Source: Planctomycetota bacterium
GTDB lineage: Bacteria > Planctomycetota > B15-G4 > SIAN01
Assembly (NCBI GenBank): GCA_031409275.1
Contig: JANNXA010000010.1
Location: 160,001 to 224,000 of the forward strand
Length of the DNA: 64,000 nt
Reading direction: 5' to 3'
This document shows, one piece after another, positions 1,321-20,781 of this stretch (position 1 is the first letter of the stretch; each line of letters opens with the position of its first letter). The notes under the pieces were generated by a model. It was not told the DNA's origin. It saw only the letters and a list, made by a program, of their open reading frames with translations, and ran no database searches. A program made the position numbers and the translations under genes.

Positions 1321-3315
1321 TCAGCGCCCGTAGCCGAGCGCCTCGAGTTGCGCCGCGCGATCGCGACTCAGCTCGTCACGCGGCAGCGAAGCGGCCGGCC
1401 GGCGATGCGTGTGACGCGCCGACTCGGCGGCATGACGGCGACGCATCTCCTGGAACAGCTCCGGCCGCAGCAACACCAGGTTGTGGGTCTCCTGCGGATC
1501 GACCGCGAGGTCGTAGAGCTCCCACCGCTGCGTCGCACCGGGCGCGCCGTGAGCTGCCTCCCAGAGATGGACGAGCTGCCGTCGCGACAGCAACACCGAG
1601 GCGTGGCGCGCATCCTCCTGCGGCGCGAGGAGGGTCGGGTGGTGGAGCAGCTTGAAACGACGGGTGCGCACGCCGGTGATGAAAGCGGACGGATCCTTGC
1701 CGGCCTCGATCCATGCCACCGGCTCATCCGCCGGAAGCGCGTCGGAGGGAGCTCCCGCGTCGACCGCGGCGGTGCGACCGAGATCGCCTGCCAGCAGCTC
1801 TCCGGCCATCGAGCGGCCATCGAGTCCGTCCGGCACCTCGACGCCGAGCAGATCGAGCAACGTCGGCATCAGATCGACCCCCTGAACCAGCTCGGGGAAG
1901 GCGACCCCGGCGCGCAGCAGCGATGGCGCCCGCAAGAGCAGAGGCACGCGGACGTTGTTGTCGTAGGCGAAGAGCCCATGGTTGAAGAAGACGTTGCGCT
2001 CGGTCATCGACTCGCCGTGGTCGCCCATCACGACCACGAGCGTGTCGTCGCGACGGCCGGCCGCATCGAGCGCTTGCAACAGCACGCCGACCTGCTCGTC
2101 GACGGCGGCGATCGCCGCGTCGTAGCGCGCGACATAGAGATCGAGGTCGGTCGACCCCTCGTCGATCGCGGTGGAGCGCTTGATCTCGCCGAGGTACCAG
2201 TCGCCGATCGCGACGCGGCGATGGCGCTCGCGCCCCCACCACGCGTCGCCGACGTAGCGGTCGCGCCCTTCCGATGGCGGCTCGTAGGGATGGTGCGGGT
2301 CGAGGTAGTGGACATAGGTGAACGTGCGTTGATCCGGCCATGCGGCCAACGCTGCGCAGACGCGCGCGTTGACGGCGGCGGCGCTGGCGCGCTCCTGCCA
2401 CGAGTGGCCGACGAACTCGAAGGAGTGAAACCCCTGATCGAACTGGAACGGGCTGGCGAGCGTCGGGTTGGCGACGAAGGCCGTGGTGAAGAAACCCGAT
2501 CCAGCGAGCTGCTCGGCCAGCGTCAAGCAATCGACCGGCAACGGCGAGCCCTCGGCGACGATGCCATGGCGACTCGGCCAGGTGCCGGTGAAGAGCGAGG
2601 CGACGCTCGGCGCCGTCGATGGCCGCGCGGTGACGGCCTGCAGGCACTGCACGCCGCTCGCCGCGAACGCGTCGAGCTGCGGTGACGTGTGCCGGCCGTA
2701 GCCGTAGCAGGAGAGGTGGTCGGCCCGGAGCGTGTCGATCACCACCAGCAGCAGGTGGCGCGGAGGAACGAAGCCGGGAGGGGGCGGCCGCGACGGTCGC
2801 ACCGCCGCCACCTCGTTCGCCACCTCGTTCGCCGCCACGACCGCCGTCTCCCGTTTCGCTTCGAGCTGCCACGTCGCCAGCGCGATCAGCGCCGCCAGCA
2901 GTGCGAGCCGCGGTCGCGATGCGAACCGAGCGCGCGCGGCCAGTGCTCCCAACAGCGCGCCACCGATCGCCAGCAACCCCACCGCGGCCACCAGCGGCAG
3001 CGGCGCGAGCGAACGCGCGGCGATGCGCGATGCGAGCGCCGCCGCAACGAGAGCGCCGATGGCGGGAGCGCGCATCGCGACCCGACGTCGCCACGGCATC
3101 GACGACAGCAGCAAGGCTCCGGCACACGCACCGATCAGCGAGTGCAGCAGCAACGCGAAGAGGAGCAGTGCGAGGGCCGGGCCGACGCCCCGCACCACTC
3201 CTCCGCGCGCCAACACCAGCACCGCGCCCAGCACCCCTCCGAACAGCGCGCCACCTGCGGCGCCCGCGAGCGCCCCTTCGATCGCTCGCGCAGCGGCCGT
3301 CTCGCGCCGTTTCAC
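1321..3315 (-). CDS. Membrane-anchored sulfatase-like / alkaline phosphatase superfamily enzyme
   Basis: About 5 N-terminal hydrophobic helices; motifs VIDTLRADH, STAPSVASLFTG, HYLDPHHPY, GDHGE, C-terminal LEALGY; GTG start overlaps the upstream TGA (GTGA, 3312-3315). Confidence 0.85.
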   Translation of the reverse strand: MKRRETAAARAIEGALAGAAGGALFGGVLGAVLVLARGGVVRGVGPALALLLFALLLHSLIGACAGALLLSSMPWRRRVAMRAPAIGALVAAALASRIAARSLAPLPLVAAVGLLAIGGALLGALAARARFASRPRLALLAALIALATWQLEAKRETAVVAANEVANEVAAVRPSRPPPPGFVPPRHLLLVVIDTLRADHLSCYGYGRHTSPQLDAFAASGVQCLQAVTARPSTAPSVASLFTGTWPSRHGIVAEGSPLPVDCLTLAEQLAGSGFFTTAFVANPTLASPFQFDQGFHSFEFVGHSWQERASAAAVNARVCAALAAWPDQRTFTYVHYLDPHHPYEPPSEGRDRYVGDAWWGRERHRRVAIGDWYLGEIKRSTAIDEGSTDLDLYVARYDAAIAAVDEQVGVLLQALDAAGRRDDTLVVVMGDHGESMTERNVFFNHGLFAYDNNVRVPLLLRAPSLLRAGVAFPELVQGVDLMPTLLDLLGVEVPDGLDGRSMAGELLAGDLGRTAAVDAGAPSDALPADEPVAWIEAGKDPSAFITGVRTRRFKLLHHPTLLAPQEDARHASVLLSRRQLVHLWEAAHGAPGATQRWELYDLAVDPQETHNLVLLRPELFQEMRRRHAAESARHTHRRPAASLPRDELSRDRAAQLEALGYGR

Positions 3316-4028
3316 CGGAGTTCCTGCCAGGCGAGCAGCGCTCCCACCAGCGCCGCCGCAACGAGACTCGCACGCGGAATCGAACGCGCCACGCCCGGCT
3401 TCCTTGCGCACGCAAGCAGCGTCAAGGCCACCAGGCTCGGCGCACCCCACTTGACGACGTGCGGCAGATCGAGGCGGACGATCAAGACCACGGTGAGCGC
3501 GTAGAAGTACGACGCCACCATGCGCTGCACGTGCAGCCGCATCGGCGTTGCCGACGTCGCGCCGCCGCGCAACGTGGCGCGTGCCTCACTCACCGCGATC
3601 AGCGCGAAGAGCAGCCCGAGCCACCCGACGACCGGGTCCTTCTTCACCAGCGCGACCAGCACTCCCGCCAGCAGGAACTGCAGCAGCAACGCGATGGCGT
3701 CGCCGATCCCGGAGGTGAGCCGTCCGTCCACGACCCGACGCCGCACCGCGCGCCAGCCGAGGAATCCCTGCGCCGCGCCCAAGAGGTTGAAGGCGAAATC
3801 GCGTTTGAAGCGCCACGAGAAGAGCTCGTCGTGCGCGAAGGTGAACCACGATCCCGACAGCCACAGGAGCCCCATGCCAACCACGTAGGCGATTCCGGCT
3901 CGACGATGCAGCGTCCCGCCCTTGCGCGTCAGCAGGGCGAGCGGGCCGAGCACGAAGATGGTCGGCCATCCAAGGCAGCGATGGACCAGACGCAGCCCAT
4001 CTGCGAAGAGGGCCGGATCGTCGCTCAC
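3312..4028 (-). CDS. Integral membrane protein (DUF2306-like)
   Basis: 6-7 hydrophobic segments; 'KGGTLHRRAGIAY' and 'HVQRM' motifs resemble this family; GTGA overlap at 4025-4028. Confidence 0.65.
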   Translation of the reverse strand: MSDDPALFADGLRLVHRCLGWPTIFVLGPLALLTRKGGTLHRRAGIAYVVGMGLLWLSGSWFTFAHDELFSWRFKRDFAFNLLGAAQGFLGWRAVRRRVVDGRLTSGIGDAIALLLQFLLAGVLVALVKKDPVVGWLGLLFALIAVSEARATLRGGATSATPMRLHVQRMVASYFYALTVVLIVRLDLPHVVKWGAPSLVALTLLACARKPGVARSIPRASLVAAALVGALLAWQELR

Positions 4029-5005
4029 GCGGCGCTCCAGGGACGATGCCACGCCTGCAGCAGCGGCCGCAGCCAACGCGGCGGTCCGGCGGCGCGCCGC
4101 TCCTCCCGCCAGCGCGGCCGGTGGAGCGCGCCATCGAAGAGGTCGCCGTAAGGCAACCGCCACTGAAGCAGCGTCGCGTGGTAGCGCACCACGTCGGCGG
4201 CGCGCGCGCGAAGTTCGTCGCCGTCGAACCCGCGCGGCCGCGCCCGCCCGGTCACCACCGCTGCGGCCGCCGAAACCAGAAGTGATGCGCAAGGCAGTTC
4301 GAGATGGCGCCGCAGCGCCTCGGCGATCCGAGCGCGTGCCTGCTCGAATCGCCGCCATCCCTGCGCCGCGACGGCGTGGGCGGTCGCCAGATCGGTCGTC
4401 GCGAGCAGTTCGGTGCGCAACTCGGCGATCGCCGCACGGTGCTCGTCCGCGCCCGCCTCGACGCCATCGAGATCGGCGAGCGCGCGCAGCGACCGCCCCT
4501 GCGACCACGCTGCTGCGAACAGGCTCGTCATCGCCAGCGGCCGCAGATTCGCGACGCGCGCCGCGAGCCGCTCGTGGCGCACCTGCGCCTCGAGCAGGCG
4601 CGCCAGCTGCGCGACGCGACTCGTGCGCGGCGTCGGCAGGTCGAGGAGCGGAGCGCCTGCGCCGCCGCGCCACCGCTCGCGCGAAGGCACCAGCGTCGTC
4701 CAGGCCAGCACGTCGAGAGTCGGCGGTGGCAGCATGTTCGGCTCGTGGCGAAACAGCGGCGCGAAGCGCCCTGGCAACCGGGTGCGCGCCGAGAAGTAGG
4801 CCGAGTTGTCGAGCGCGATGGCAGCGGGCACGACCAGCAGGTCGAGGTCCGAAAGGCCGGGCGCCCCGACCTCGCCGACCTGCCAGACCGCACGGGCGCG
4901 CGGAGCCACCGCCGCGGCGTAGCGCTGCGCCGCATCGTCGTAGAGCGCGCGCGGCAAGGTCCGTGGTGGCGCGACGAACGATGGGGCCATCGCGTCGCCA
5001 CTCAT
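4025..5005 (-). CDS. Hypothetical protein with Pol-beta-type nucleotidyltransferase-like motif
   Basis: 'VWQVGEVGAPGLSDLDLLVV' resembles hG[GS]...DxD; ATGA overlap with the GT4 stop at 5002-5005. Confidence 0.55.
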   Translation of the reverse strand: MSGDAMAPSFVAPPRTLPRALYDDAAQRYAAAVAPRARAVWQVGEVGAPGLSDLDLLVVPAAIALDNSAYFSARTRLPGRFAPLFRHEPNMLPPPTLDVLAWTTLVPSRERWRGGAGAPLLDLPTPRTSRVAQLARLLEAQVRHERLAARVANLRPLAMTSLFAAAWSQGRSLRALADLDGVEAGADEHRAAIAELRTELLATTDLATAHAVAAQGWRRFEQARARIAEALRRHLELPCASLLVSAAAAVVTGRARPRGFDGDELRARAADVVRYHATLLQWRLPYGDLFDGALHRPRWREERRAAGPPRWLRPLLQAWHRPWSAA

Positions 5006-6150
5006 GCCGATGCCGCGCGCGCCGCGGCCGACTCCCACAAGTCGTGGTAGCGGCCGACGACCTGCGACGCCGAGAAGCGCTCCTCCACGCGAGCGCGGCC
5101 CACCTGCCCCATGGCGCGCGCCTGCTCGGGAGCGGCGAGCCGCTCGACGAGCAGATCGAGCAGTCGCGCCGAATCGCCGATCGGCACGAGGTGTCCCGTG
5201 ACGCCCTCCTCTACTACGTCCGCGATCCCGCCCGCGGCATAGCTCACCACCGGCAACGACGCGGCCATCGCTTCGAGCAGCACGCGACCGAGTCCTTCGA
5301 CCCGCGGTGCGTGCACCATGGCGTCGGCCGCCGCCAGCACCGTGAAGATCTCGTCATGCCAGCCGACGAGGCGCAAGGCGTGCGCGCAGCGAAGCGCCTC
5401 GGCGCGCGCGATGAGCCGCGCCGCAACGCCATCGTGGTCGCGGCCGACCAGGACGAGGACCAGTTCGGGCAGCTGTCGCAGCGCACGCGGAAGCTCTTCG
5501 AGCAGCTGATCCTGGCCCTTGGCGCCGAGCCGCGTCACGACCGACACGGCGACCCGCTGCGACGGCTCGAGCGCGAGCCGGCGCCGCAGTTCGTCGCGAC
5601 GCGCGCGCAGCTCGCTCGCCTGCGCGAGCCGCTGCGGCGTCACGAAGTGGCCGATCACCTCGACCTGCTGACCGGGCGCGTGGTCGTGGACGTGCCGCCG
5701 CAGCGCCTGCGAAAGCGCGACCACGCCGTCGAGCTGCGCGATCGAGCGGCGGCATCGCCAGCGCATCCAGCCATCGCCACCGAAGCGACCGAAACCACGC
5801 ACCGTCGAGAGGCGCGCGACGCCGCGGCGCGCGGCGAGCGTGATCGGCTGCCGACAGGAGGTGAGCGTATTCTGGTTGAAGTGCACCACACCGCGCGCGG
5901 TCGCGAGTCCCGACGCGATGCGGCGCCGCCCGCGCCAGTCGAACGTCCCCTCGATCTGCGCGCGATCGAGGCAGCGAGCGCCCGCCTGCTGCGCACGCCG
6001 GACGACGCCGTCGTACTCGCTCCAGCTTGGCGCGATGAAGCTGGCGGCAACGCGGCGGCGATCGAGCCGTTCGATCAGTTCGACCCAGGAGTACTCGGCG
6101 CCGCCGACATGGTGAGAGTCGAGGAGGAAGAGCAGCGGCAGAGCGTGCAT
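5002..6150 (-). CDS. Glycosyltransferase family 4 (GT-B)
   Basis: N-terminal GGAE; 'EGLGRVLLEAMAASLPVV' E-x7-E motif; TGATG overlap at 6148-6152. Confidence 0.92.
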   Translation of the reverse strand: MHALPLLFLLDSHHVGGAEYSWVELIERLDRRRVAASFIAPSWSEYDGVVRRAQQAGARCLDRAQIEGTFDWRGRRRIASGLATARGVVHFNQNTLTSCRQPITLAARRGVARLSTVRGFGRFGGDGWMRWRCRRSIAQLDGVVALSQALRRHVHDHAPGQQVEVIGHFVTPQRLAQASELRARRDELRRRLALEPSQRVAVSVVTRLGAKGQDQLLEELPRALRQLPELVLVLVGRDHDGVAARLIARAEALRCAHALRLVGWHDEIFTVLAAADAMVHAPRVEGLGRVLLEAMAASLPVVSYAAGGIADVVEEGVTGHLVPIGDSARLLDLLVERLAAPEQARAMGQVGRARVEERFSASQVVGRYHDLWESAAARAASA

Positions 6151-6755
6151 CACCGGACGCCGATCGATTCCGCGGCGACTTCGTGCGCCTGCCGCGAGCG
6201 CCGCCAGCGCCGCCGGCCGGCGATCCAAGCGCAGAGCGCAAGCGCGACGGCGAACGCCGCGACGCGCGGGTGGCCGATCGCCAGCAGGAGCGGCGCCAAC
6301 AAGCCGCGAGCGACCGCGCGCGCCCACGGCCGATCAGCGATCCACGCGGCGAGCGGCGGCGAGGTCCGCTCGTACCACGCCACGAACGCGCGTCCCGCTC
6401 GATGGGGGCGCAAGTGGGCGTCGCGGAACTCCCGTAGCGCCGCCACCTCCGGTTCGAGCGGAGAACCGAACGCCGCTGTCGCGACGAAGCAACGCGAGCC
6501 ACCGCCGCCACCACCGCCACCGCTGCTCGGTGGCCGCGGCGTCACGCTCTTGGTGCCGATGCGACCAGCGGCGTCGTAGTCGTAGGAGATCGTGGTCGCG
6601 CCGTCGTAGGTCAGGCGGGTCAGACGATCGTCGCTGTCGTAGCGATAGGTCTGCACCTGGCGCTGCGGCACGACTTGCGGTGCCGCCAGCAACGTGGCGG
6701 AACAGGTGAACTGAAGCACGAAGGCGGTGAGCTGCATGGTGAATCTCCGGGTCAT
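6150..6755 (-). CDS. Small secreted protein: signal peptide + single YD-repeat unit + Gly linker + CFI-box-CTERM domain
   Basis: 'TYRYDSDDRLTRLTYDGATTISYDYDAAGRI', then 'GGGGGGGSRCFVATAAFGS...LREFRD...GRAFVAWYERTSPPLA', then a hydrophobic segment and a basic RRRWRR tail; ATGA overlap with the RHS stop. Confidence 0.85.
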   Translation of the reverse strand: MTRRFTMQLTAFVLQFTCSATLLAAPQVVPQRQVQTYRYDSDDRLTRLTYDGATTISYDYDAAGRIGTKSVTPRPPSSGGGGGGGGSRCFVATAAFGSPLEPEVAALREFRDAHLRPHRAGRAFVAWYERTSPPLAAWIADRPWARAVARGLLAPLLLAIGHPRVAAFAVALALCAWIAGRRRWRRSRQAHEVAAESIGVR

Positions 6756-9700
6756 TCGTCGCTGCCGAGATGGGCGAACGCCTCGAGGAAGTCGCTGGCG
6801 ACGTCGTCGGCGCGCGCGCGACGCGCCGCGTCCGACACGGCGCCCGGCACCTCGGCGAAACCGACGAACATCTCGACCGCGAGCAGCTTCTCGATCGCAA
6901 GGCGTGCATTGACGCCATCGATCGCAGGGGGCAGCGGCTCGTCCGTCGCGAGACGTGCGACGGAGCGGTCGAGCCAATCGGCGAACGGCCGCCGATCGAA
7001 GCCGAGGAGGCGATCACCGAAGTAGCCCGATGCGCCCGCCAGCAGCGTTGCGGGCGGCGCCGCCGCGCCTCGACCCTGCGCCTCGAGCGGGCCGATCAGC
7101 GTCGACAGATCGAGCGTCTGGCCGCTGTGACAGAGGATGCAGGTCGTGGCGCCGAGCGCCAGATGCATCACGAGGGCGACGTTCTGCCGATTCGCGGCGC
7201 TCGTCAGCACTCCGTCGAGATCGAACCGGCGAGCGAGCGAGCGACCGTCGAAACGCGAGTCGCCGCCGAGCCAGCGGTTGTCGAGTCCGCCGCCGATCGC
7301 CGTCGCGAAGGTGTCGAGGGCGACTGACACCGACTCATCTGCGCGGCCGAGTCGGCCACCCGGCTGCGGGAAGCGGCCGAGTCCATAGGGCGTCGCACCA
7401 AGCTGCGCGAGCCAGCCGAAGTCGCGGATCGGCTGCAACGTGCTGCAGTGAGCGGTGTCCCAAACGCGGTCGCCGAAGGCGACTCCGACACCGAGCGAAA
7501 GGGCGAAGTCGCGACCGCCGAGCGCGAGATCGGCGTACGGGTAGCTCGTGCTCCCACCGAGCGTGCCGAGCAGTTCGCCCATCGGACCCCACGCGTAGGC
7601 GTCGCTGATCGCGCCCGCCGCGTCGGTCTCGAACAGCGTGTTGCCGTTCTCGTCGAAGTGGTAGTACTCGCGCGCCGAAGTGGACAGGTCGATCGACCAG
7701 AGCAGCTCGCCCGTCGGCGTCGCGACGTAGGCGTGCGATGGCACGCCGCCATCGCTCATGAAGCCGAGGCTCGGCCGCGTCGTCGCGTCGTTCCAGGTGA
7801 ACTCGGTCAGCGGCCCGAGGTTCACGCGACCGCTCAACACCCGCCCGAGCCCGTCCCACGTGAAGTCGTAGCTGTCCGTCCCATCGTTCGCGCCGACCAG
7901 CCGGCCCGCGCCATCCCACGAGTAGCTGCGCGTGCCGTCGCCCGTCCGCCGTCCGAGCGCGTCGTAACTCAACGCCGCGTCCTGTCCCGCGGCGTCGAAG
8001 ACGCTCGTCATGACCCCGACGGCGGGCAAGCCGACCACCGGCTGCAGCCGATCTGCGGTGACGATGCGGCCGGCGTCGTCGCGCGTGAATTGCAGATCCG
8101 CCATCGATCCGGACGAGCCGTCGACGCGGAAGCGCGCCAGCCATCCGTCGTTGTCCCAGTCGTAGCGCTCGAGCACGCCGTTGCCGAAGGTGCGGGAGGC
8201 CAGACGGCCGGCGGTGTCCCAGGCGTAGTCGACGCTGCCGACGCCGCCATCGCCGACATGCGCGAGCCGCCCCGCGAGGTCGTACTGGTAGCTCACGATC
8301 AGGCCGGGCTGCAGCGTGGTGGTGAGCAACCTGCCGGCCAGGTCGCGAGTCGACGCGATGCCGTTGCTGATCTCGACGCGGCCGACGTCGTCGCGCGAAA
8401 TCGCGACATCGGTCGCCGACACGATCCGGCCATCGTCGTCGTGCAGCCACTCGATCGTCGTGCCGTCGCTGAAGTTCGCCTCGGCGAGCTCGCCGCGATC
8501 GCTCCATTGCAGGTCGACGTGCGCGGCGCCCGGCAGGTCGACGCGGCTCGGAAGACCGCGCACGTCGAGCGTCGTCAGCCACTCCCGTCCCACCGGGTCG
8601 ATCGCGCCAACGACGTCGCCACGCTCATCGCGGTTGCGCGCGAAGCGGACGCCGCCACCGCTGCCGACGCCGATGGAGCGCCCGCGCGAGTCGCGGTCGA
8701 TCGTCATCGTCTGGCCACCGTTGAGCGTCGCCGCCTCGATCACCGCGCCGCTCTCGTCGCGAGTGAAGCGGGTGCGCGCCCCCTCGCCGCTCGTCGTCTC
8801 CGCCACGCGCCCGTTGCGGTCGCGCGTGAAACGCTGCTCGCGGCCCTCGGCGCTGGTGATTCGCGTGAGCTGGCCGCGGCGATCGCTGGTGAAGGTCGTG
8901 CGCGCGCCATCGGCCGCATCGAAGCTGGCCAGCACATCCTCGTCGTCGTAGCCGAGCGAGTAGTCGAGGCCGCTGCCATCCGTCGCGCCGAGCAGGCGAC
9001 CGCTCGCGTTCCACGCGAGCTGCAACGAGATCCCGCCGCCATCCGTCACCGAGGACGGTCGACCGAGCACATCGAACTGGATCGTGGCGCTGCCGCCCTC
9101 CGGATCGAGGACCGCCCAGACGCGATCCATGCTGTCGTAGCTGAAGCTGAACGTGCGCGAACCCGGCAGCTGCACCGTCTGCAGGTTCGAGTTCATGTCC
9201 CACGCCAGCAGCGTCGTCTCGCCGATCTCGTCAGTGATCGACGTGAGGCGATCGAGGTGGTCCCAGACCGCGTGACGCATCGCGCCGCCCGACAACATCA
9301 CGTCGGTCAAGCGACCGAGCGCGTCGTAGTCAAAGCCGGTCGTCTGCCCCGCCGCATCGACCACGTGGTCGAGCAGCAGATCGGAGCGCCACCCTGCCAG
9401 GCGCACGCCGCCATCGGGCGCGGTCGCCGTCAGCACCTCGCCGCGCGCGCCGTACGTGCGGCTCCACACGCCGCCGCCGAAGTCGGTTCGCGTCAGGACG
9501 TTGCCGGCGGGGTCCCAGGTGAACTGCTCGAACTCGCCACCCGGGGCCGTGATGCGCGTCACGTCATGGAACGTGAAGCCGGACGCGACGCGCGCGCTCC
9601 ACTGCCAGCGCGTCACCGACCCATCGGGTGCCGTGACGCTCGCCGGAAAGCCCGACGCCGAGTCGAACGCAACGGTCGAGCGATCGCCGCGACGATCGAC

Positions 9701-11101
9701 CACTTGCGTGCGGCGCCCCGAGCTGTCGTAGCTGAGGGTGGCGGCCTTGCCGTTCTCGAACTGCAGTCGCGTCAGCCGGCCCGAGGCGTGGGTGTGCTGC
9801 TGCGTCGCGAACGTCGGCTCCGTGATCGTCGTCGTTCCCGCGCCGTCGTCGTAGGCGAACGTCCGCAAGTTGCCGACCGCGTCCTGCTGGCTGACGACGC
9901 GACCGCCGCTGTCGTAGGCCTGGGTCCACGGCACGTTGCCCTCGGGACGGGTGGTCGCCGCCAGCAGCGCGCGCCCCGGCAGCGTCGCCGAGTAGGCGAA
10001 GTGGGTGGCGCCGCCCTCCGCATCGGTGACCGTCGCGAGACGGCCCGATCCGTCGTAGGCGTAGCCGACCGTCCGCGTGCCGTCCGCGAGTTGCTGGAGC
10101 CGGCTGTTCGCGTCGTACGCGAGGGTGAACGCGCGGCCGAGCCCGTCCGCGACGCCGCTCAGGCGACCCGACGTGTAGCTCAGCGTCAGCGCGTTGCCGC
10201 GGCCATCGGCGACCTGCGTCATGCGACCGTTCGAGTCGAAGGTGCGCAGCACGTGCTGCTCGGGATCGCGAAGCACGAAGCCGCCGCTGCTGCCGTCGAT
10301 CAGCGCGTACGGCTGATCGCTGCCTTTGACTCGCGTCCAGGTGGTCGTGAACGGGCTGCGCTCGAAGCGGAGCTGACGGCCATCGGCGGCGGTGATCTCG
10401 ACCGCTTCGCCAAGATCAGCGAGCGACCACTCGAACGAATGGCGCCAGCCCGCGCCAAGTCGCCCGGTGGGCAGGCCGTCGGCGACGAAGCGCGACGAGT
10501 AGCGACGCGCGAAGCGCAACGGCAGCGGGCCGCGCAGCAGGAGGTCGGGGCGCTCCTCGACGAAGAGCTCGCCGGTCGCGGTGGCGACCGGATCGCCCGC
10601 GATGCCGCCAAACGGCAGGTTCCCGAAATTGGACGCGTCCAGCGCCACCGCGACCGAGACGACGTGCGGCGAGTAGGGCGAGCAGTTGTTCTCCTGGCAC
10701 GGCCCGCTCTTGCCGACGTCGGCGCCGACCCAGCAGATCTCGAGCGACGCGTTCTGCGCGACCTGCAGCGACGGCTCGGCCACCACCGCGAAGATCTGGT
10801 CGGCGCGATCGCGCACCGTGATCGTCGTACCGCCGCCGGGCAGCAGCGAACCGTCGCCCTTCGCCATGTCGAGCGCGTAGACCTTGAACACGGCACTGTT
10901 CGTGCTCTTGGCGGTGATGTCGGCCTCGCAGCCGCCAAGGTCGACCACGAAGACGAAGCCGGTGGTGCCCGGCCGCAGTTCGATGGCGTTGGGCGTCACG
11001 TCGTGCGCAGGAAGTTCGCTGGCGCAGAACGCGACGCAAAGCGCAGCCACGCTGGCACGGCAAAGCGAACGCAAGGGTGGCGCGAAGGATCGAAACGGCA
11101 T
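6752..11101 (-). CDS. Secreted RHS/YD-repeat protein with DUF6531-like domain, degenerate RHS core and C-terminal CxxCH
   Basis: Signal-peptide-like N-terminus; 'GDPVATATGEL...PLRFARRYSS...LGAGWRHSF'; dozens of YDxxGR repeats; CILCH at 7127-7141; alternative start at 11128. Confidence 0.9.
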   Translation of the reverse strand: MPFRSFAPPLRSLCRASVAALCVAFCASELPAHDVTPNAIELRPGTTGFVFVVDLGGCEADITAKSTNSAVFKVYALDMAKGDGSLLPGGGTTITVRDRADQIFAVVAEPSLQVAQNASLEICWVGADVGKSGPCQENNCSPYSPHVVSVAVALDASNFGNLPFGGIAGDPVATATGELFVEERPDLLLRGPLPLRFARRYSSRFVADGLPTGRLGAGWRHSFEWSLADLGEAVEITAADGRQLRFERSPFTTTWTRVKGSDQPYALIDGSSGGFVLRDPEQHVLRTFDSNGRMTQVADGRGNALTLSYTSGRLSGVADGLGRAFTLAYDANSRLQQLADGTRTVGYAYDGSGRLATVTDAEGGATHFAYSATLPGRALLAATTRPEGNVPWTQAYDSGGRVVSQQDAVGNLRTFAYDDGAGTTTITEPTFATQQHTHASGRLTRLQFENGKAATLSYDSSGRRTQVVDRRGDRSTVAFDSASGFPASVTAPDGSVTRWQWSARVASGFTFHDVTRITAPGGEFEQFTWDPAGNVLTRTDFGGGVWSRTYGARGEVLTATAPDGGVRLAGWRSDLLLDHVVDAAGQTTGFDYDALGRLTDVMLSGGAMRHAVWDHLDRLTSITDEIGETTLLAWDMNSNLQTVQLPGSRTFSFSYDSMDRVWAVLDPEGGSATIQFDVLGRPSSVTDGGGISLQLAWNASGRLLGATDGSGLDYSLGYDDEDVLASFDAADGARTTFTSDRRGQLTRITSAEGREQRFTRDRNGRVAETTSGEGARTRFTRDESGAVIEAATLNGGQTMTIDRDSRGRSIGVGSGGGVRFARNRDERGDVVGAIDPVGREWLTTLDVRGLPSRVDLPGAAHVDLQWSDRGELAEANFSDGTTIEWLHDDDGRIVSATDVAISRDDVGRVEISNGIASTRDLAGRLLTTTLQPGLIVSYQYDLAGRLAHVGDGGVGSVDYAWDTAGRLASRTFGNGVLERYDWDNDGWLARFRVDGSSGSMADLQFTRDDAGRIVTADRLQPVVGLPAVGVMTSVFDAAGQDAALSYDALGRRTGDGTRSYSWDGAGRLVGANDGTDSYDFTWDGLGRVLSGRVNLGPLTEFTWNDATTRPSLGFMSDGGVPSHAYVATPTGELLWSIDLSTSAREYYHFDENGNTLFETDAAGAISDAYAWGPMGELLGTLGGSTSYPYADLALGGRDFALSLGVGVAFGDRVWDTAHCSTLQPIRDFGWLAQLGATPYGLGRFPQPGGRLGRADESVSVALDTFATAIGGGLDNRWLGGDSRFDGRSLARRFDLDGVLTSAANRQNVALVMHLALGATTCILCHSGQTLDLSTLIGPLEAQGRGAAAPPATLLAGASGYFGDRLLGFDRRPFADWLDRSVARLATDEPLPPAIDGVNARLAIEKLLAVEMFVGFAEVPGAVSDAARRARADDVASDFLEAFAHLGSDE

Positions 11102-11210
11102 GGAGCAGCTCCCGGATCGCCCGCGCATGAAGTCGCGGGGGCGTCAGGAGAGACGGGAAGCGCTCGCAGGAGCGGACACGGCCGGGACGCGCCCCGGGCG
11201 GCGCCCGGGT

Positions 11211-11797
11211 TCAGCCGCCGTGGCCGCGCCGCGCGATCTCGAAGCAATCACGAAAGCGGGCCAGCGCGCGCTGCCGCGCCTTCTCGGCGGCGTCGCGACC
11301 GATCGACCACTGCGCCGCCTGCTCGGCGACGTCGAGGCCAGCGCAGATCCCCTCCACCAGCGCGCGATCGCGGGGCAGAAGCATGTCGAGCGCCAGCGCG
11401 GCCAGCGAGAGCTGCTCGCGACGCACGGCGAACGTGGACGGACCGGTCACCGAGGCCGCGAGCTCGCGAATCGCGCCGAGGTCGGCGCTGTCGTGCGCGC
11501 CGCCGGCGAGCCGCAGCACCTCACCGCCACGCCGCTTCAGCGCCAGCCAGTGGTCGCGACGATCGGCGAGCCAGCGCTCGCCGGCGGTGAAGAGCCAGGC
11601 GCGCTGCGCGGCCTCGTTGCCTTCGCTCGGGCGCGCGTCGCGTTCGAGCAGGTGCGCGCAGATCCCCTGCGCGAGATCGTCCGCTGTCTCGAGCCGCAAC
11701 AGCAGCCGGCCGGCGCGACGACGGACGAAGTCGGACAGGAGCTCGAGCTCCTCGCCGAGCCAGCCTCCGAGGTCGATGCGCGCATCGCGCGGCTGAC

Positions 11798-11801
<4 letters not shown>
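11211..11801 (-). CDS. ECF-type RNA polymerase sigma factor (kinase-associated, planctomycete-like)
   Basis: Region 2-like 'ADDLAQ...AWLF'; 'TGPST' linker; region 4-like 'LLPRDRALV...VAEQA...AAEKARQRAL'; ATGA overlap with the kinase stop. Confidence 0.8.
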
Positions 11802-14839
<3,038 letters not shown>

Positions 14840-14870: not shown

Positions 14871-15923
14871 CTACCAGCGCAGCAGCAGCAGTTCCGAGCA
14901 GAAACCGGGTCCCATCGCCAGCATCACGCCGAGCTTGCCGGGCAACGGGCGGCGCCGCAGCAGCGTCTGCTCGAGGATCAGCAGCACCGAGGCGCTCGAC
15001 AGGTTTCCGACCTTTTTCAGGCTCTCCCACGAGAGCGCGAGATCCTCGTCCGTCACGCCGAGCGAGTCGCGCGCTCCTTCGAGCACCTTGGGGCCGCCCG
15101 GATGGCAGACCCACGACGCGATGTCGCGCCGCGTCAGCTTCAGGTCGGCGAGGAACGCGTCGACGTCGGGGCCGAGGCGCTCGCGCGCGACCTTCGGCAC
15201 CGCCGAGGAGAGGACGAGGCTGAACCCCTTCTCGCTGATGCGCCAGCCCATCACCTCTTCGGTGTCGGGGTAGAAGACCGAGCGCGTCGCGACGATGGTC
15301 GGGCCGTTCGCGGCGCGGTCGGCGCCGACCACGATCGCGCAACTCGCGCCGTCGCCGAAGAGGCCGCTCGCGATCACGTTGGCGATGCCGGTGTCGCCGC
15401 GCTGCACCGTGAGCGAACAGAGCTCGACGCTCACCACCGCCACCACGGCGCGCGGATCGCCGCGCACGAAATCGGCGGCGCGCGCGACCGCGGCTGCGCC
15501 GGCGACGCAACCGAGCCCGAACAGCGGCATGCGCTTCACGTCGCGGCGCAGCCCCATGCGATTGACCAGGCGGGCGTCGATCGAAGGACTCGCCAGGCCG
15601 GTCACGGTGGTGAAGACGATCGCATCGACGTCCTGCACCGCGAGGCCGGCGCGTTCGAGTGCGAGCGTCAACGCGCGCTGCGCGAGGTCGGTGGCGGCCG
15701 AGATCCAGGCGTCGTTGAAATCGCCGAAGGTCGTGAACTCGGCGTAGCGCTCGAGCGGGAAGGCGAGGTGGCGGCCGTCGACCTGCACGTGATCGTGCAG
15801 CGCGTCGAGGCGGCGCAGCACGGCCGGCGCATCGCGCCAGACCACCTCCCGCAGGTAGCGCGTGAGCGTCGCCTGATCGTAGTAGTGAACCGGCAGGGCG
15901 CTGGCGACGGCGGCGATCTTCAC
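14871..15923 (-). CDS. Type III polyketide synthase (chalcone/stilbene synthase family)
   Basis: Catalytic triad contexts FGLGCVAG, CHPGGPK, GNLSSAS; LFGDGA; AMGPGFCSE. Confidence 0.93.
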   Translation of the reverse strand: MKIAAVASALPVHYYDQATLTRYLREVVWRDAPAVLRRLDALHDHVQVDGRHLAFPLERYAEFTTFGDFNDAWISAATDLAQRALTLALERAGLAVQDVDAIVFTTVTGLASPSIDARLVNRMGLRRDVKRMPLFGLGCVAGAAAVARAADFVRGDPRAVVAVVSVELCSLTVQRGDTGIANVIASGLFGDGASCAIVVGADRAANGPTIVATRSVFYPDTEEVMGWRISEKGFSLVLSSAVPKVARERLGPDVDAFLADLKLTRRDIASWVCHPGGPKVLEGARDSLGVTDEDLALSWESLKKVGNLSSASVLLILEQTLLRRRPLPGKLGVMLAMGPGFCSELLLLRW

Positions 15924-15957
15924 AGCGAAGCGAACTCCATCGGGGACATGACGGCGA

Positions 15958-16345
15958 TCATTCGAGCAAGCTGCGACGCAGGGCCAGCCGACCAACCTCG
16001 ATCTCGAGCTGCAGAAAGCCGGGCGCGGCGCGCAAAGGGACCGGCTCCTGATCGCCGAGATCGAGCGCCTCGTCGATGATGCGCCAGCGACCCGAGAGCG
16101 TCTGGAACTGCGGCGACGACTCGCCCTGCACCAGAGCCGCGCCGGTGTACTCGCCGACCGCACGGGTACGCAGCTCGATCCACAACGTGACCGTCGGGTC
16201 GACCGAGATCACGCGGATCGTCAACTTGCCCGACGCTCGACCGTTCACCGTCTGCTACGTCGAATCGACAACGGCCTCGTCGAAGCCGCTCCACTCGAAC
16301 ACGATCGGGCGATGGGCAGCGACGTCGACGTGCTCGCGGGGCGTT
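15958..16345 (-). pseudogene. Possible gene remnant interrupted by an in-frame TAG
   Basis: Protein-like 'EHVDVAAHRPIVFEWSGFDEAVVDST*QTVNGRASGKLTIRVISVD...' continues in the same frame across TAG 16255-16257; no clear start. Confidence 0.3.
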
Positions 16346-16846: not shown

Positions 16847-16923
16847 TGGTGTCCCCGGCGGGAGTCGAACCCACGGCCTTCGGTTTAGGAAACCAACGCT
16901 CTATCCATCTGAGCTACGGGGAC
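16847..16923 (-). tRNA. tRNA-Arg (anticodon CCT)
   Basis: Reverse complement GTCCCCG TAGCTCAGATGGATAGAGC G TTGGT-TTCCTAA-ACCGA AGGCC GTGGG-TTCGACT-CCCGC CGGGGAC ACCA: full cloverleaf with encoded CCA. Confidence 0.97.
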
Positions 16924-18450: not shown

Positions 18451-20781
18451 ATGTCCCAGATGTGCGCCAAGACCGCCCGCCCTGGAGTTCGGGCGTGGCT
18501 CGCCGTCCTCCTCGCCACCTGCATCGCGGGACTCCGGGCACCACGGCTGCCGGCGCAAGGAATGCCCGCACCGAGCAAGGTCGAGTCTTGGATCTCGCCG
18601 CTCAACCAGAAGCGCATGAAGATCGAGTGGGAGGGGCCGCCCGAATACAAGGCGAAGAAGCTCCCCGACGGGTCGAGCGAGGCTCCGCGCTCCCCATGGC
18701 CCTTCCTGCTCTACGTGAAGGACGTCGACAGCAAGGAGGCGCAGAAGATCAGCGCCGTCGTCTTCGCCGATGCCCGCATCGCACTCGCCTCGTTCGCCGT
18801 CAAGTTCGTCCAGCTGCCGCCCGACCGCGCCATCGAACTCCCCTACCTGAAAGGGGTCGCCGGGCTGAAGGACCCGATGCTGCTGGTGATCGACCGCGAT
18901 TTCAAAGTGGTCGGCGTCGTCGACGAGTGGAAGAACTTCGACGACAAGGGGGTCCTGCCGCTGTTGCAGAAGGTCTCCGACGCGACCTACCCGGTGAAGC
19001 TCGCCGGCTTCCTTGGCGAGCTGATGAAGCTGATGCAGGACGGCGAGAAGAGCTGGAAGCAGGAGGAGCGGGTCGCCGAGCTGCAACGCAAAGCGGGCTG
19101 CGCCGACCCGGCCAAGCAGAAGGCGCTCGACGAAGAGTGCGACAGGCTCGAGAAGGAGATCGAGGAGGCCAATGCGGCGCTCGCCAAGCGCGAGGCGGAG
19201 CTGCGCGCCAGCTTCGTCGCGCGCGAGCCCGAGGCCGCGGCGCTGCCCGAGACCTTCGGCAGCGGCCGCAACAAGCGCAAGCTCACGCCGGCGGAGATCG
19301 AGGCGATCGCCTCGTACCGCGAGTTCGCCCGCAACGAGAACCCGATCGTGCGCGCGGCGGCGGTCGAAGACCTCGGGAGCATCGACACCGGCGCGATGGT
19401 CGAGTTCATCCTCAGCGCCTGCAACGACGTCGACGATCGTGTCGTCGAGGCGGCCGGGCGCGCGCTCGGGAGGATGAAGAGCGACGAGTCGCTCGGTGCG
19501 CTGCTCGCCGGCCTTGACCACCAAAACGCCAAGGCGCGTTTCGCCGCCGCGTACGGCTTCTCGCGCATCCATCGCGCCTACCCGCCGGCGGTGCCGAAGC
19601 TGCTGTCGATCCTGCGGACCGGCGATGACGATCAGCGCCGCGCGGCGATCCAGGCGCTGGCGAACATGAAGGATGCGTCGACCGTCGACGCCTTGATCGA
19701 GGCGCTCGCCGACAAGATCCCCGCGCTGCGTGTCATCGCCGCCGAGGCGCTCGGCACCTTGAAGGCCGCCAAGGCGGCGCCGGTGCTGCTGGCGCAGGTC
19801 GAGACGGCCAGCGACTGGGCGCTCCAGAAGGTCGCCTGCGAATCGCTGGCGGCGCTGCGCGACGTCGCCACCATCGAGCCGCTGCTCCGGCTGTTCGAGA
19901 CGCGCGAAGGGGTCCTGCTCGAAGCGCTGCACAAGACGCTCGCCTCGATCACCGGCGAGGACTTCGGCATGGACGCCGCGTTCTGGCGGCGTTGGTGGGA
20001 CCGCGCGGGCGCCGGCTTCGTCCTGCCGACCGACGACGAGCTGGCCAAGAAACGCGACCGCCTCGAGGCCAACAACGCGAAGTACAAGCGCCCCAACACG
20101 AAGACCTACCACTCGATCGACACGCTCTCGAAGCGATTGATCTTCGTGATCGATACCTCGTCGAGCATGGGCGACAAGATCACCATCACCGATTCGGCGA
20201 CCAAGGAGCAGGTCGAGGCGTTCGGCAGCCGCGTGAAGATGGACATCGCCAAGAACGAGCTGATCGCGCTGCTCGGCACGCTGGAGAACGACGTCGAGTT
20301 CAACATCATCACCTTCGCCGGCAGCGCCAAGCCGTGGCAGGACGGCCTGGTCAGCGCCTCGCAACGCACCGCGGCGATCAAGTTCGTCAGCAAGCTGCAG
20401 CCGCTCAAGGCGGCGGCGACCGGAGGTCGCGCCAGCGGCCCCACCACCGGCAGCGACGAGCAGAAGACCAACACCTACGGCGCGATCCTCGCCGCCTTCG
20501 GCTTCGCCGATGAAGGGTCGCCCGACTGGAAGAAGCGCGGCAAGGTCGACACGATCTTCTTCGTGACGGACGGCTTGCCCACCACCGGCCAGATCGTCGA
20601 CGTGCCGAAGATGATCGACGCCGTCTGCGAGATGAACCGCAGCCGCGGGATGACGATCCATCTGGTCATGTTCGACGCCGACGCCGCACGCCGCCTCGAG
20701 GGACTTGCCACGCGCAACGGCGGCAAGTGCGTCGTGCGCAACTTCGAAAGCGGGGGCCCGCCGCCACCCGACGGGAAGTGA
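18451..20781 (+). CDS. Secreted HEAT-repeat + von Willebrand A domain protein
   Basis: Signal peptide; HEAT repeats (VRAAAVEDLG, RRAAIQALA, RVIAAEALG); VWA MIDAS 'FVIDTSSSM', 'TNTYGAI', 'VTDGLP'. Confidence 0.88.
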   Translation: MSQMCAKTARPGVRAWLAVLLATCIAGLRAPRLPAQGMPAPSKVESWISPLNQKRMKIEWEGPPEYKAKKLPDGSSEAPRSPWPFLLYVKDVDSKEAQKISAVVFADARIALASFAVKFVQLPPDRAIELPYLKGVAGLKDPMLLVIDRDFKVVGVVDEWKNFDDKGVLPLLQKVSDATYPVKLAGFLGELMKLMQDGEKSWKQEERVAELQRKAGCADPAKQKALDEECDRLEKEIEEANAALAKREAELRASFVAREPEAAALPETFGSGRNKRKLTPAEIEAIASYREFARNENPIVRAAAVEDLGSIDTGAMVEFILSACNDVDDRVVEAAGRALGRMKSDESLGALLAGLDHQNAKARFAAAYGFSRIHRAYPPAVPKLLSILRTGDDDQRRAAIQALANMKDASTVDALIEALADKIPALRVIAAEALGTLKAAKAAPVLLAQVETASDWALQKVACESLAALRDVATIEPLLRLFETREGVLLEALHKTLASITGEDFGMDAAFWRRWWDRAGAGFVLPTDDELAKKRDRLEANNAKYKRPNTKTYHSIDTLSKRLIFVIDTSSSMGDKITITDSATKEQVEAFGSRVKMDIAKNELIALLGTLENDVEFNIITFAGSAKPWQDGLVSASQRTAAIKFVSKLQPLKAAATGGRASGPTTGSDEQKTNTYGAILAAFGFADEGSPDWKKRGKVDTIFFVTDGLPTTGQIVDVPKMIDAVCEMNRSRGMTIHLVMFDADAARRLEGLATRNGGKCVVRNFESGGPPPPDGK

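Follow-up and report, generated by a model that had tools for sequence, protein, structure and literature searches.

An RHS shell is seen as a container from which a toxin is released and delivered, and the question raised by the locus described here is what such a shell does when its cargo position holds a CxxCH motif, to which c-type haem can be attached. The locus lies in a 64,000-nucleotide stretch of DNA from a Planctomycetota bacterium (assembly GCA_031409275.1, contig JANNXA010000010.1, positions 160,001 to 224,000), referred to below as the window, and comprises an RHS gene and a small partner gene immediately downstream of it (Table 1). The reading to which we incline, with slightly more than even confidence, is that the product is a tethered, non-cleaving, exported RHS shell whose retained tail would receive one c-type haem; delivery of a toxin is less likely than a role as an exported cage for a single haem.

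The protein belongs to the RHS/YD shell fold family, with a YD-repeat array following DUF6531. An AlphaFold2 (AF2) model of residues 262-1458 built from 45 sequences had a mean pLDDT (predicted local distance difference test) of 77 and a pTM (predicted TM score) of 0.74, with shell blocks mostly at 85-95 and the tail below 50, and the top Foldseek matches of the shell model were Rhs shells (E-value about 1e-55 to 1e-44). NCBIfam models detected the YD repeats of the protein, and the RHS-associated core TIGR03696 was not found. A hydropathy peak of 2.5-2.8 was present at the N-terminus in 4/4 orthologues examined, the window copy being the least typical, and the four conserved Cys of the N-terminal domain probably form disulfides. 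The preliminary description of this DNA had reported the pentapeptide CILCH in the tail and an essentially Cys-free YD region; the former occupies residues 1330-1334 and is the sole CxxCH of the protein, and zero Cys occur between residues 149 and 1228. Its wording that the motif is preceded by MH was loose, since M1321 and H1322 sit 9 and 8 residues before C1330 (MHLALGATTCILCHSG). The motif is not an assembly error, because contigs of two further runs (X3, covering 7127-7316, and X4, covering 6634-7166), which come from the same study and not from independent habitats, agree with it letter for letter (zero differences).

Homologue searches and one exhaustive hidden Markov model (HMM) search yielded a family of five clusters with seven sequences, namely, the window protein, P0004, P0005 (with members P0124 and P0125), P0006 and P0129; the orthologue in G004, a genome of the same genus as the window genome (G000), has a tail as in P0005 and was not counted separately. 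Each of the seven sequences contains exactly one CxxCH in the tail, 82-109 residues past the core Arg; the His directly after the second Cys is invariant (7/7), and the motif Cys are the only Cys of the tail in 6/7. P0129, with a shell 44% identical to that of the window protein, was not used in profile construction, though the profile contained the motif. Identity to the window protein was 44-63% in the shell, 14-29% in the tail before the motif and 23-27% after it, and even among close members the tail was 69-90% identical, versus 96% for the shell. Relative to P0005, the nine residues from C1285 were 89% identical in P0004 and 78% in P0006, whereas the flanks of this stretch were 37-50% and 17-33% identical, respectively. 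Since C, C and H are fixed in 5/5 clusters while the flanks diverge to 14-29%, the CxxCH motif is, judging from these alignments, under selection. The earlier caution that a single motif may arise by chance did not hold up: CxxCH appeared in approximately 1-2 per 10,000 shuffles of the tail, yet it is present in all seven family sequences. It occurred in 0/87 RHS homologues with a late PxxxxDPxG.

The end of the RHS core is degenerate in the same family. Both catalytic Asp columns were occupied by other residues in 6/6 family rows (Ile/Thr/Arg and Gln/Leu) and also in P0129 (Ala and Gln), with the Arg retained, whereas both Asp were present in 57/79 other aligned RHS rows (85/123 proteins had the anchor for this alignment). 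A 5-residue deletion lies just before the former DPxG, and TIGR03696 matched neither the window protein nor P0004-P0006; the window protein thus has no intact RHS core with the bipartite DPxG aspartyl autoprotease. This bipartite motif is described, and reported absent from mammalian teneurins, in the available part of PMC13018210, and the accessible portion of PMC8765631 states that D1324N or D1346N in RhsA abolishes cleavage and killing. With both Asp replaced, the tail would stay attached and is probably never released from the shell. The catalytic Asp are missing as well from P0060 and from a second branch (10 rows, support 100), so the protease was lost at least twice, if the tree holds. 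His1227-Cys1228, considered as a ligand or a substitute protease, is invariant in four clusters; it is not essential, because it is absent from P0129, and was rejected.

For haem attachment, the window genome encodes a CcsA-family protein with a WGxxWxWD (WWD-type) motif, the gene for which adjoins a ResB-family gene on contig C33 (PF01578 and PF05140), and CcsA was also found in G004. No match to CcmE (PF03100) was obtained in the 93%-complete genome. The haem maturation foreseen in the preliminary description thus has its machinery, although as System II (CcsA/ResB families) and not as the Ccm system named there. According to the accessible part of PMC8112865, CXXCH peptides of only 9 residues can already receive haem from CcsBA, which requires both thiols and the His, with no helix; an exported CXXCH should therefore be a substrate by default. 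A crude six-frame count gave 28 reading frames with at least three CxxCH in the genome. Large frames of multihaem cytochromes, in which the number of CxxCH reached 23, were located on contigs C33, C28, C30 and C43, two of them on C33 together with the ccsBA-type genes. Covalent haem on the tail is, on the basis of motif and gene content, somewhat more probable than its absence. As regards what marks a c-type cytochrome, the conserved motif and the maturation genes are present, and a cytochrome fold was not found.

The preliminary description had correctly placed the motif in the RHS cargo position; it treated the tail, however, as ordinary cargo and overlooked both the lost autoprotease and the partner gene with its YD hairpin. 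The partner carries a CFI-box-CTERM signal (NF041770) near its C-terminus (E-value = 7.8e-26, 89.7 bits versus a cut-off of 40) and is syntenic and 78% identical over residues 20-157 in G004. In both G000 and G004, the gene downstream of the RHS gene thus encodes a YD hairpin plus CFI-box-CTERM and not an adjacent immunity protein. When a single filter was applied, the hairpin module was found beside or within related RHS genes at 8/9 loci (L031, L113, L137-L139, L141, L144 and L145) versus 0/15 other RHS loci from relatives; 3/8 of the positives are training sequences, a single family supplies 4/9 of the loci, some of the control stretches are cut off by contig edges, and L140 failed the filter, though a 28-bit match with a signal is visible there. 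The separate hairpin gene is upstream of the RHS gene at L137-L140; at L141 and in G000 and G004 it is downstream. Signal and hairpin are fused ahead of the RHS body in P0021, P0023, P0037, P0072, P0045, P0051, L113 and L145 (seven or eight open reading frames (ORFs) depending on strictness, as P0045 has no named signal). In the fused ORFs (including L113:5674-10359 and L145:5430-12290), the signal comes first, then the YD hairpin, a linker and a CTERM-like segment, and finally a second signal-like segment with the RHS body behind it; this order implies internal processing into two exported products, and these ORFs are apparent polyproteins.

The hairpin-bearing relatives (L113, L137-L141, L144 and L145) retain the second Asp, several with Glu at the first, and have no CxxCH; the hairpin is therefore older than the motif. 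Their tails are helical, with no obvious small immunity gene downstream by eye. A Pro-rich linker of 27-33 residues was present in about 60/71 aligned rows of the lineage, and its site holds one extra YD pair in P0085, P0092, P0110 and P0116 (by eye), which suggests strand complementation by the hairpin. A query with residues 961-1210 matched 7/401 genomes of the same phylum and 3/401 of another. CFI-box-CTERM itself was discarded as an RHS marker: none of the 80 metagenome loci found via the partner, mostly by the CFI box, had an RHS/YD match, and it is therefore the hairpin, not the CFI box, that accompanies the shell. In relatives, the hairpin precedes MYXO-CTERM-like (17.4-19.6 bits, cut-off 20) or VPEP-type segments; the segments of L113 and P0021 are probably PEP-CTERM and GlyGly-CTERM. 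A divergent second CFI-box-CTERM without the CFxATAA box was observed in both genomes (G000:C44:64487-64672 and G004:C24:103889-104056).

The tethered haem-bearing shell that we favour may operate as follows. Both the RHS protein and its partner would be exported by Sec, CcsBA would attach haem by thioether before the shell closes, and His1334 and probably His1322 would serve as ligands. The shell would then close around or beside the uncut tail, the partner hairpin would join its beta-sheet, and the CFI-box-CTERM end would anchor it at the envelope. The role is the weakest step: the caged site may serve redox chemistry or sensing of a small molecule of the O2, NO or peroxide type, without killing activity, possibly controlled by the upstream sigma factor and kinase. 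A lone haem cannot form a wire or pass electrons across the shell, and a small-molecule site is therefore preferred to long-distance electron transfer; even if haem is bound, we consider this role rather less probable than some other, and the function assigned to the CxxCH-tailed shell is a guess. The cavity of BiTLP is roughly 44,000 cubic angstroms according to the available text of PMC13018210; by analogy, the tail of approximately 21 kDa could fit a cavity of this kind, and it may equally well thread out of the shell, as happens in teneurins.

A number of observations weigh against this reading. The motif-context score trained on this genome (area under the curve, AUC, 0.87) gave a value within the haem range for P0004 alone (82nd percentile), with P0001 at the 13th, P0005 at the 21st, P0006 at the 23rd and P0129 at the 1st; that is, one of five motifs was haem-like, three were ambiguous and that of P0129 was unlike haem sites. 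No conserved Met or His occurs downstream of the motif in the seven sequences, the upstream His varies in position from -7 to -9, and a similar upstream His precedes 47/230 motifs of the multihaem frames of the genome. CcsA is also present in 4/4 genomes whose related RHS has no CxxCH. The four-sequence alignment A1 had no match in Pfam or PDB sequences at E ≤ 10, and the Atlas search with the tail gave nothing scoring at least 0.9. Structure prediction, which had placed the shell firmly, did not place the tail: a model from 6 sequences had a pLDDT of 43.6 and no Foldseek match at E ≤ 0.001, and the matches at E ≥ 0.26, globins among them, were not meaningful. CxxCH was also found in the tails of 2/116 other RHS homologues (P0014 and P0098), these 116 being the remainder of the best 120 of 177 matches. 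The five clusters share one origin, which reduces the conservation to one motif gain kept over time. Other relatives with a dead protease have CxxC motifs at the end of the tail, mostly lacking the His. Intact-protease relatives likewise have no obvious downstream immunity gene by eye, and the argument from missing immunity is thereby weakened. As to the hairpin, many shell repeats scored with its profile, no single docking position was picked, and the alignment did not place it.

Several of these points suit a zinc or disulfide site, which is a serious rival to haem, although we consider it unlikely. The tail would again be retained, and the Cys pair with His1334 and His1322 would bind zinc, or a disulfide would staple a poorly folded cargo, with no haem. 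Context scores outside the haem range for 4/5 motifs, the CxWC(P/H) ends or several CxxC of other protease-dead relatives, CxxC in 10/87 canonical tails and the failure to find a cytochrome fold for the tail are all consistent with it, whereas the invariance of the His right after the second Cys (7/7) argues for haem, as does the fact that an exported CXXCH is itself a CcsBA substrate (PMC8112865, in the part available) in a genome with CcsA/ResB genes. Less probable again is a motif without function of its own, captured as a cytochrome-gene scrap by a tail under loose constraint, a reading which we regard as the least credible of the alternatives; related RHS tails do contain short Hcp, VgrG, secretin and metallopeptidase pieces, and a secretin-like tail is seen in P0007, the nearest outgroup, but the fixation of C, C and H amid flanks at 14-29% identity points to selection, and tblastn of four tails against the genome gave no donor (best match elsewhere, E-value 0.15).

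The protein may instead still be a polymorphic antibacterial toxin, with a helical membrane-active or unknown tail that either is freed by some other protease or acts in its attached state, the motif being structural with or without haem; this we consider improbable, though less so than the scrap. RHS tails are usually toxins, the tail evolves much faster than the shell, also among close members, Sec-exported teneurin-like shells bear toxic helical tails (PMC13018210, accessible part), and the top Atlas rows, all below 0.9, include a PT-TG cluster as a lead only. Against this, both catalytic Asp are lost, and killing by RhsA needs cleavage according to the portion of PMC8765631 available. The whole tail is one homologous domain across 5/5 clusters, not a swapped one, with no match to Pfam or NCBIfam at E ≤ 0.1; the preliminary remark that it bears no recognised toxin motif was borne out, as no known toxin family matches. 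Neither a paralogue nor an orphan tail of the protein was found in the genome, nor is there an immunity-like gene next door, and the tails share no hydrophobic helix (19-residue hydropathy maxima of 0.8-1.65 at differing places). Thus, the window protein lacks three tested features of RHS polymorphic toxins, namely, the autoprotease, the swappable toxin tail and the immunity gene, and would, if a toxin, be one of an unknown type.

Like Rhs effectors of type VI secretion systems (T6SS) and the Tc-toxin BC shells (RhsA 7Q97, Tse5 8CP6, Tse15, RhsP and TccC), the window protein has DUF6531 with a YD shell, a tail in the cargo position and the conserved core Arg; unlike them, it has a signal-like start, no PAAR or VgrG family match, neither catalytic Asp, no DPxG, no TIGR03696 match, no toxin family and no immunity-like gene, and its system adds CxxCH in the tail and a separate YD-hairpin partner. 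Bacterial teneurin-like proteins (TLPs) and animal teneurins also have YD shells, many with Sec signals, and mammalian teneurins without the cleavage motif are a precedent for a tail-keeping shell (PMC13018210, as far as accessible). Unlike in teneurin-like proteins, no FN-plug or NHL propeller was detected (PF25023 at 17 bits versus a cut-off of 50), and there is no room for one before DUF6531; bacterial TLPs, in turn, keep the autoprotease and bear toxic tails (same source, same part). The word "heme" is absent from the main text of PMC13018210, and neither cytochrome nor heme is mentioned in the first 300,000 characters of PMC3482391.

The single CxxCH in a predicted exported protein, the helical surroundings and the CcsA/ResB genes are as in System II (CcsBA) monohaem cytochromes c, whereas the lack of a cytochrome c family or fold match, the missing conserved downstream Met and the position of the motif behind a 1200-residue shell are not. 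The upstream His as sixth ligand would resemble the arrangement at haem I of cytochrome c3. As in proteins with CFI-box-CTERM (NF041770), MYXO-CTERM (TIGR03901) and PEP-CTERM, the partner ends in a sorting signal (CFI-box-CTERM above cut-off); unlike those, its passenger is a single YD hairpin, which in seven or eight ORFs is fused before the RHS body. Encapsulin cages with haem peroxidase cargo offer a functional analogy only, as shells with haem cargo reachable by small molecules; the window shell differs in being of an unrelated fold, single-chain and exported, with covalent haem predicted. RHS and CFI are unmentioned in the available part of the MYXO-CTERM preprint 10.1101/2023.06.07.544157. 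A literature search, with most subscription journals and supplements outside its scope, returned no paper joining RHS or YD repeats with cytochrome c, CxxCH or heme, nor any on the CFI box, and nothing matching by title or abstract start on Rhs with MYXO-CTERM, Rhs in Planctomycetes or inactive and non-toxin Rhs.

More tentatively, and with doubt prevailing, the locus may represent a toxin shell domesticated into a single-chain haem nanocompartment, in which one haem would be sealed inside and a YD hairpin supplied in trans would complete and anchor the shell, as one member of a larger lineage, so far undescribed, in which RHS proteins are two-part and Sec-exported, with interchangeable sorting signals on the hairpin anchor and an autoprotease lost at least twice. 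If the favoured reading is true, this fold would have a non-toxin use in a natural bacterial shell that lacks the protease and retains a cofactor site, parallel to the motif loss in mammalian teneurins, and such a shell would bear on haem attachment to cargo before YD-shell closure and hence on YD shells as protein cages. For Sec-exported RHS proteins, the YD-hairpin partner points to a way of being kept at the cell surface, and the reach of this partner extends well beyond the CxxCH family.

The CxxCH-tailed RHS family is rare, its five clusters coming from uncultured material as far as records show. Alignment A1 matched 2/42 genomes of the order (G000 and G004), and the full protein as query gave two loci in genome contigs, while the tail in genome contigs and A1 in metagenome contigs gave no confirmed relative. 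Among proteins of 432-2000 aa, A1 recovered only the four clusters already known. A search of 1.84 billion proteins gave three matches, of which P0128 was discarded as an FN3-repeat artefact. A quick tree was computed for 37 RHS rows (37/38 chosen had the anchor); in it, the five clusters formed one branch (SH-aLRT 100), sister to P0007. The latter, the nearest outgroup, shares the N-terminal domain and has an intact protease and a secretin cargo (PF00263, E-value = 3e-22; tail approximately 1245-1494). An RHS branch without the catalytic Asp (P0008, P0009, P0011, P0014, P0016, P0022, P0040, P0127 and P0130), mostly with signal-like starts, has C-terminal tails of 250-400 aa that form a patchwork of whole or partial Hcp, VgrG pieces of 25-40 aa, HExxH metallopeptidase pieces and short repeats, and mostly end in CxWC(P/H); these tails are possibly more surprising than the CxxCH shell itself. 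In P0015, P0053, P0055 and P0060, also without the catalytic Asp, the tails are of low complexity or internally repeated.

Table 1. Features of the RHS locus and its surroundings in the window.
Feature	Position	Strand	Remarks
RHS/YD-shell gene	6752-11128	-	ORF of 1458 aa; database gene call starts at 11101 (P0003, 1449 aa)
Predicted Sec signal peptide	11006-11101	-	End at LPA-HD, by homology with AAA-HD and LLA-HD of orthologues
N-terminal domain	10634-11005	-	~124 aa; 4 conserved Cys; no Pfam match
DUF6531 (PF20148)	10364-10597	-	Residues 178-255; E-value 1e-17; usual start of RHS shells
YD-repeat shell	7679-10345	-	17 PF05593 stretches, Cys-free; from Pfam, Cys positions and AF2
Pro-rich linker	7982-8083	-	28 aa; typical of the RHS lineage concerned; extra YD pair here in several other RHS proteins
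Degenerate RHS core end	7355-7468	-	Arg1221 retained; Ile1234 and Gln1255 at catalytic Asp positions; DPxG absent
C-terminal tail	6755-7354	-	~200 aa, fast-evolving; helical in low-confidence model; no family match
CxxCH motif	7127-7141	-	C1330, C1333, H1334 (residues 1330-1334)
His1322	7163-7165	-	Candidate sixth ligand (putative role); His at -7 to -9 in 7/7 sequences
Partner gene	6150-6737	-	195 aa; starts 14 bp past RHS stop
Partner YD hairpin	6537-6641	-	After signal-like start; followed by Gly linker
Partner CFI-box-CTERM	6288-6491	-	Followed by hydrophobic segment and Arg-rich end
ECF-type sigma factor	11211-11801	-	Directly upstream of RHS; below family cut-offs; syntenic in G004
Ser/Thr kinase	11798-14839	-	FGE-sulfatase-like C-terminal domain; syntenic in G004
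Type III polyketide synthase	14871-16163	-	Upstream of kinase; 88% identical in G004
tRNA-Arg(CCT)	16847-16923	-	Further upstream

The gene order type III polyketide synthase, kinase, ECF sigma factor, RHS and partner is retained in G004, and the genes past the partner differ. The kinase possibly regulates the adjoining sigma factor. In the window, the partner gene and the gene at 2-1285 are separated by a sulfatase, unknown ORFs and a GT4 glycosyltransferase (1321-6327, minus strand); in G004 the two genes are neighbours, so the intervening block was either inserted here or lost there. On the plus strand, 18451-20781 encodes a protein of 776 aa that combines HEAT repeats with a vWA domain at its C-terminus.

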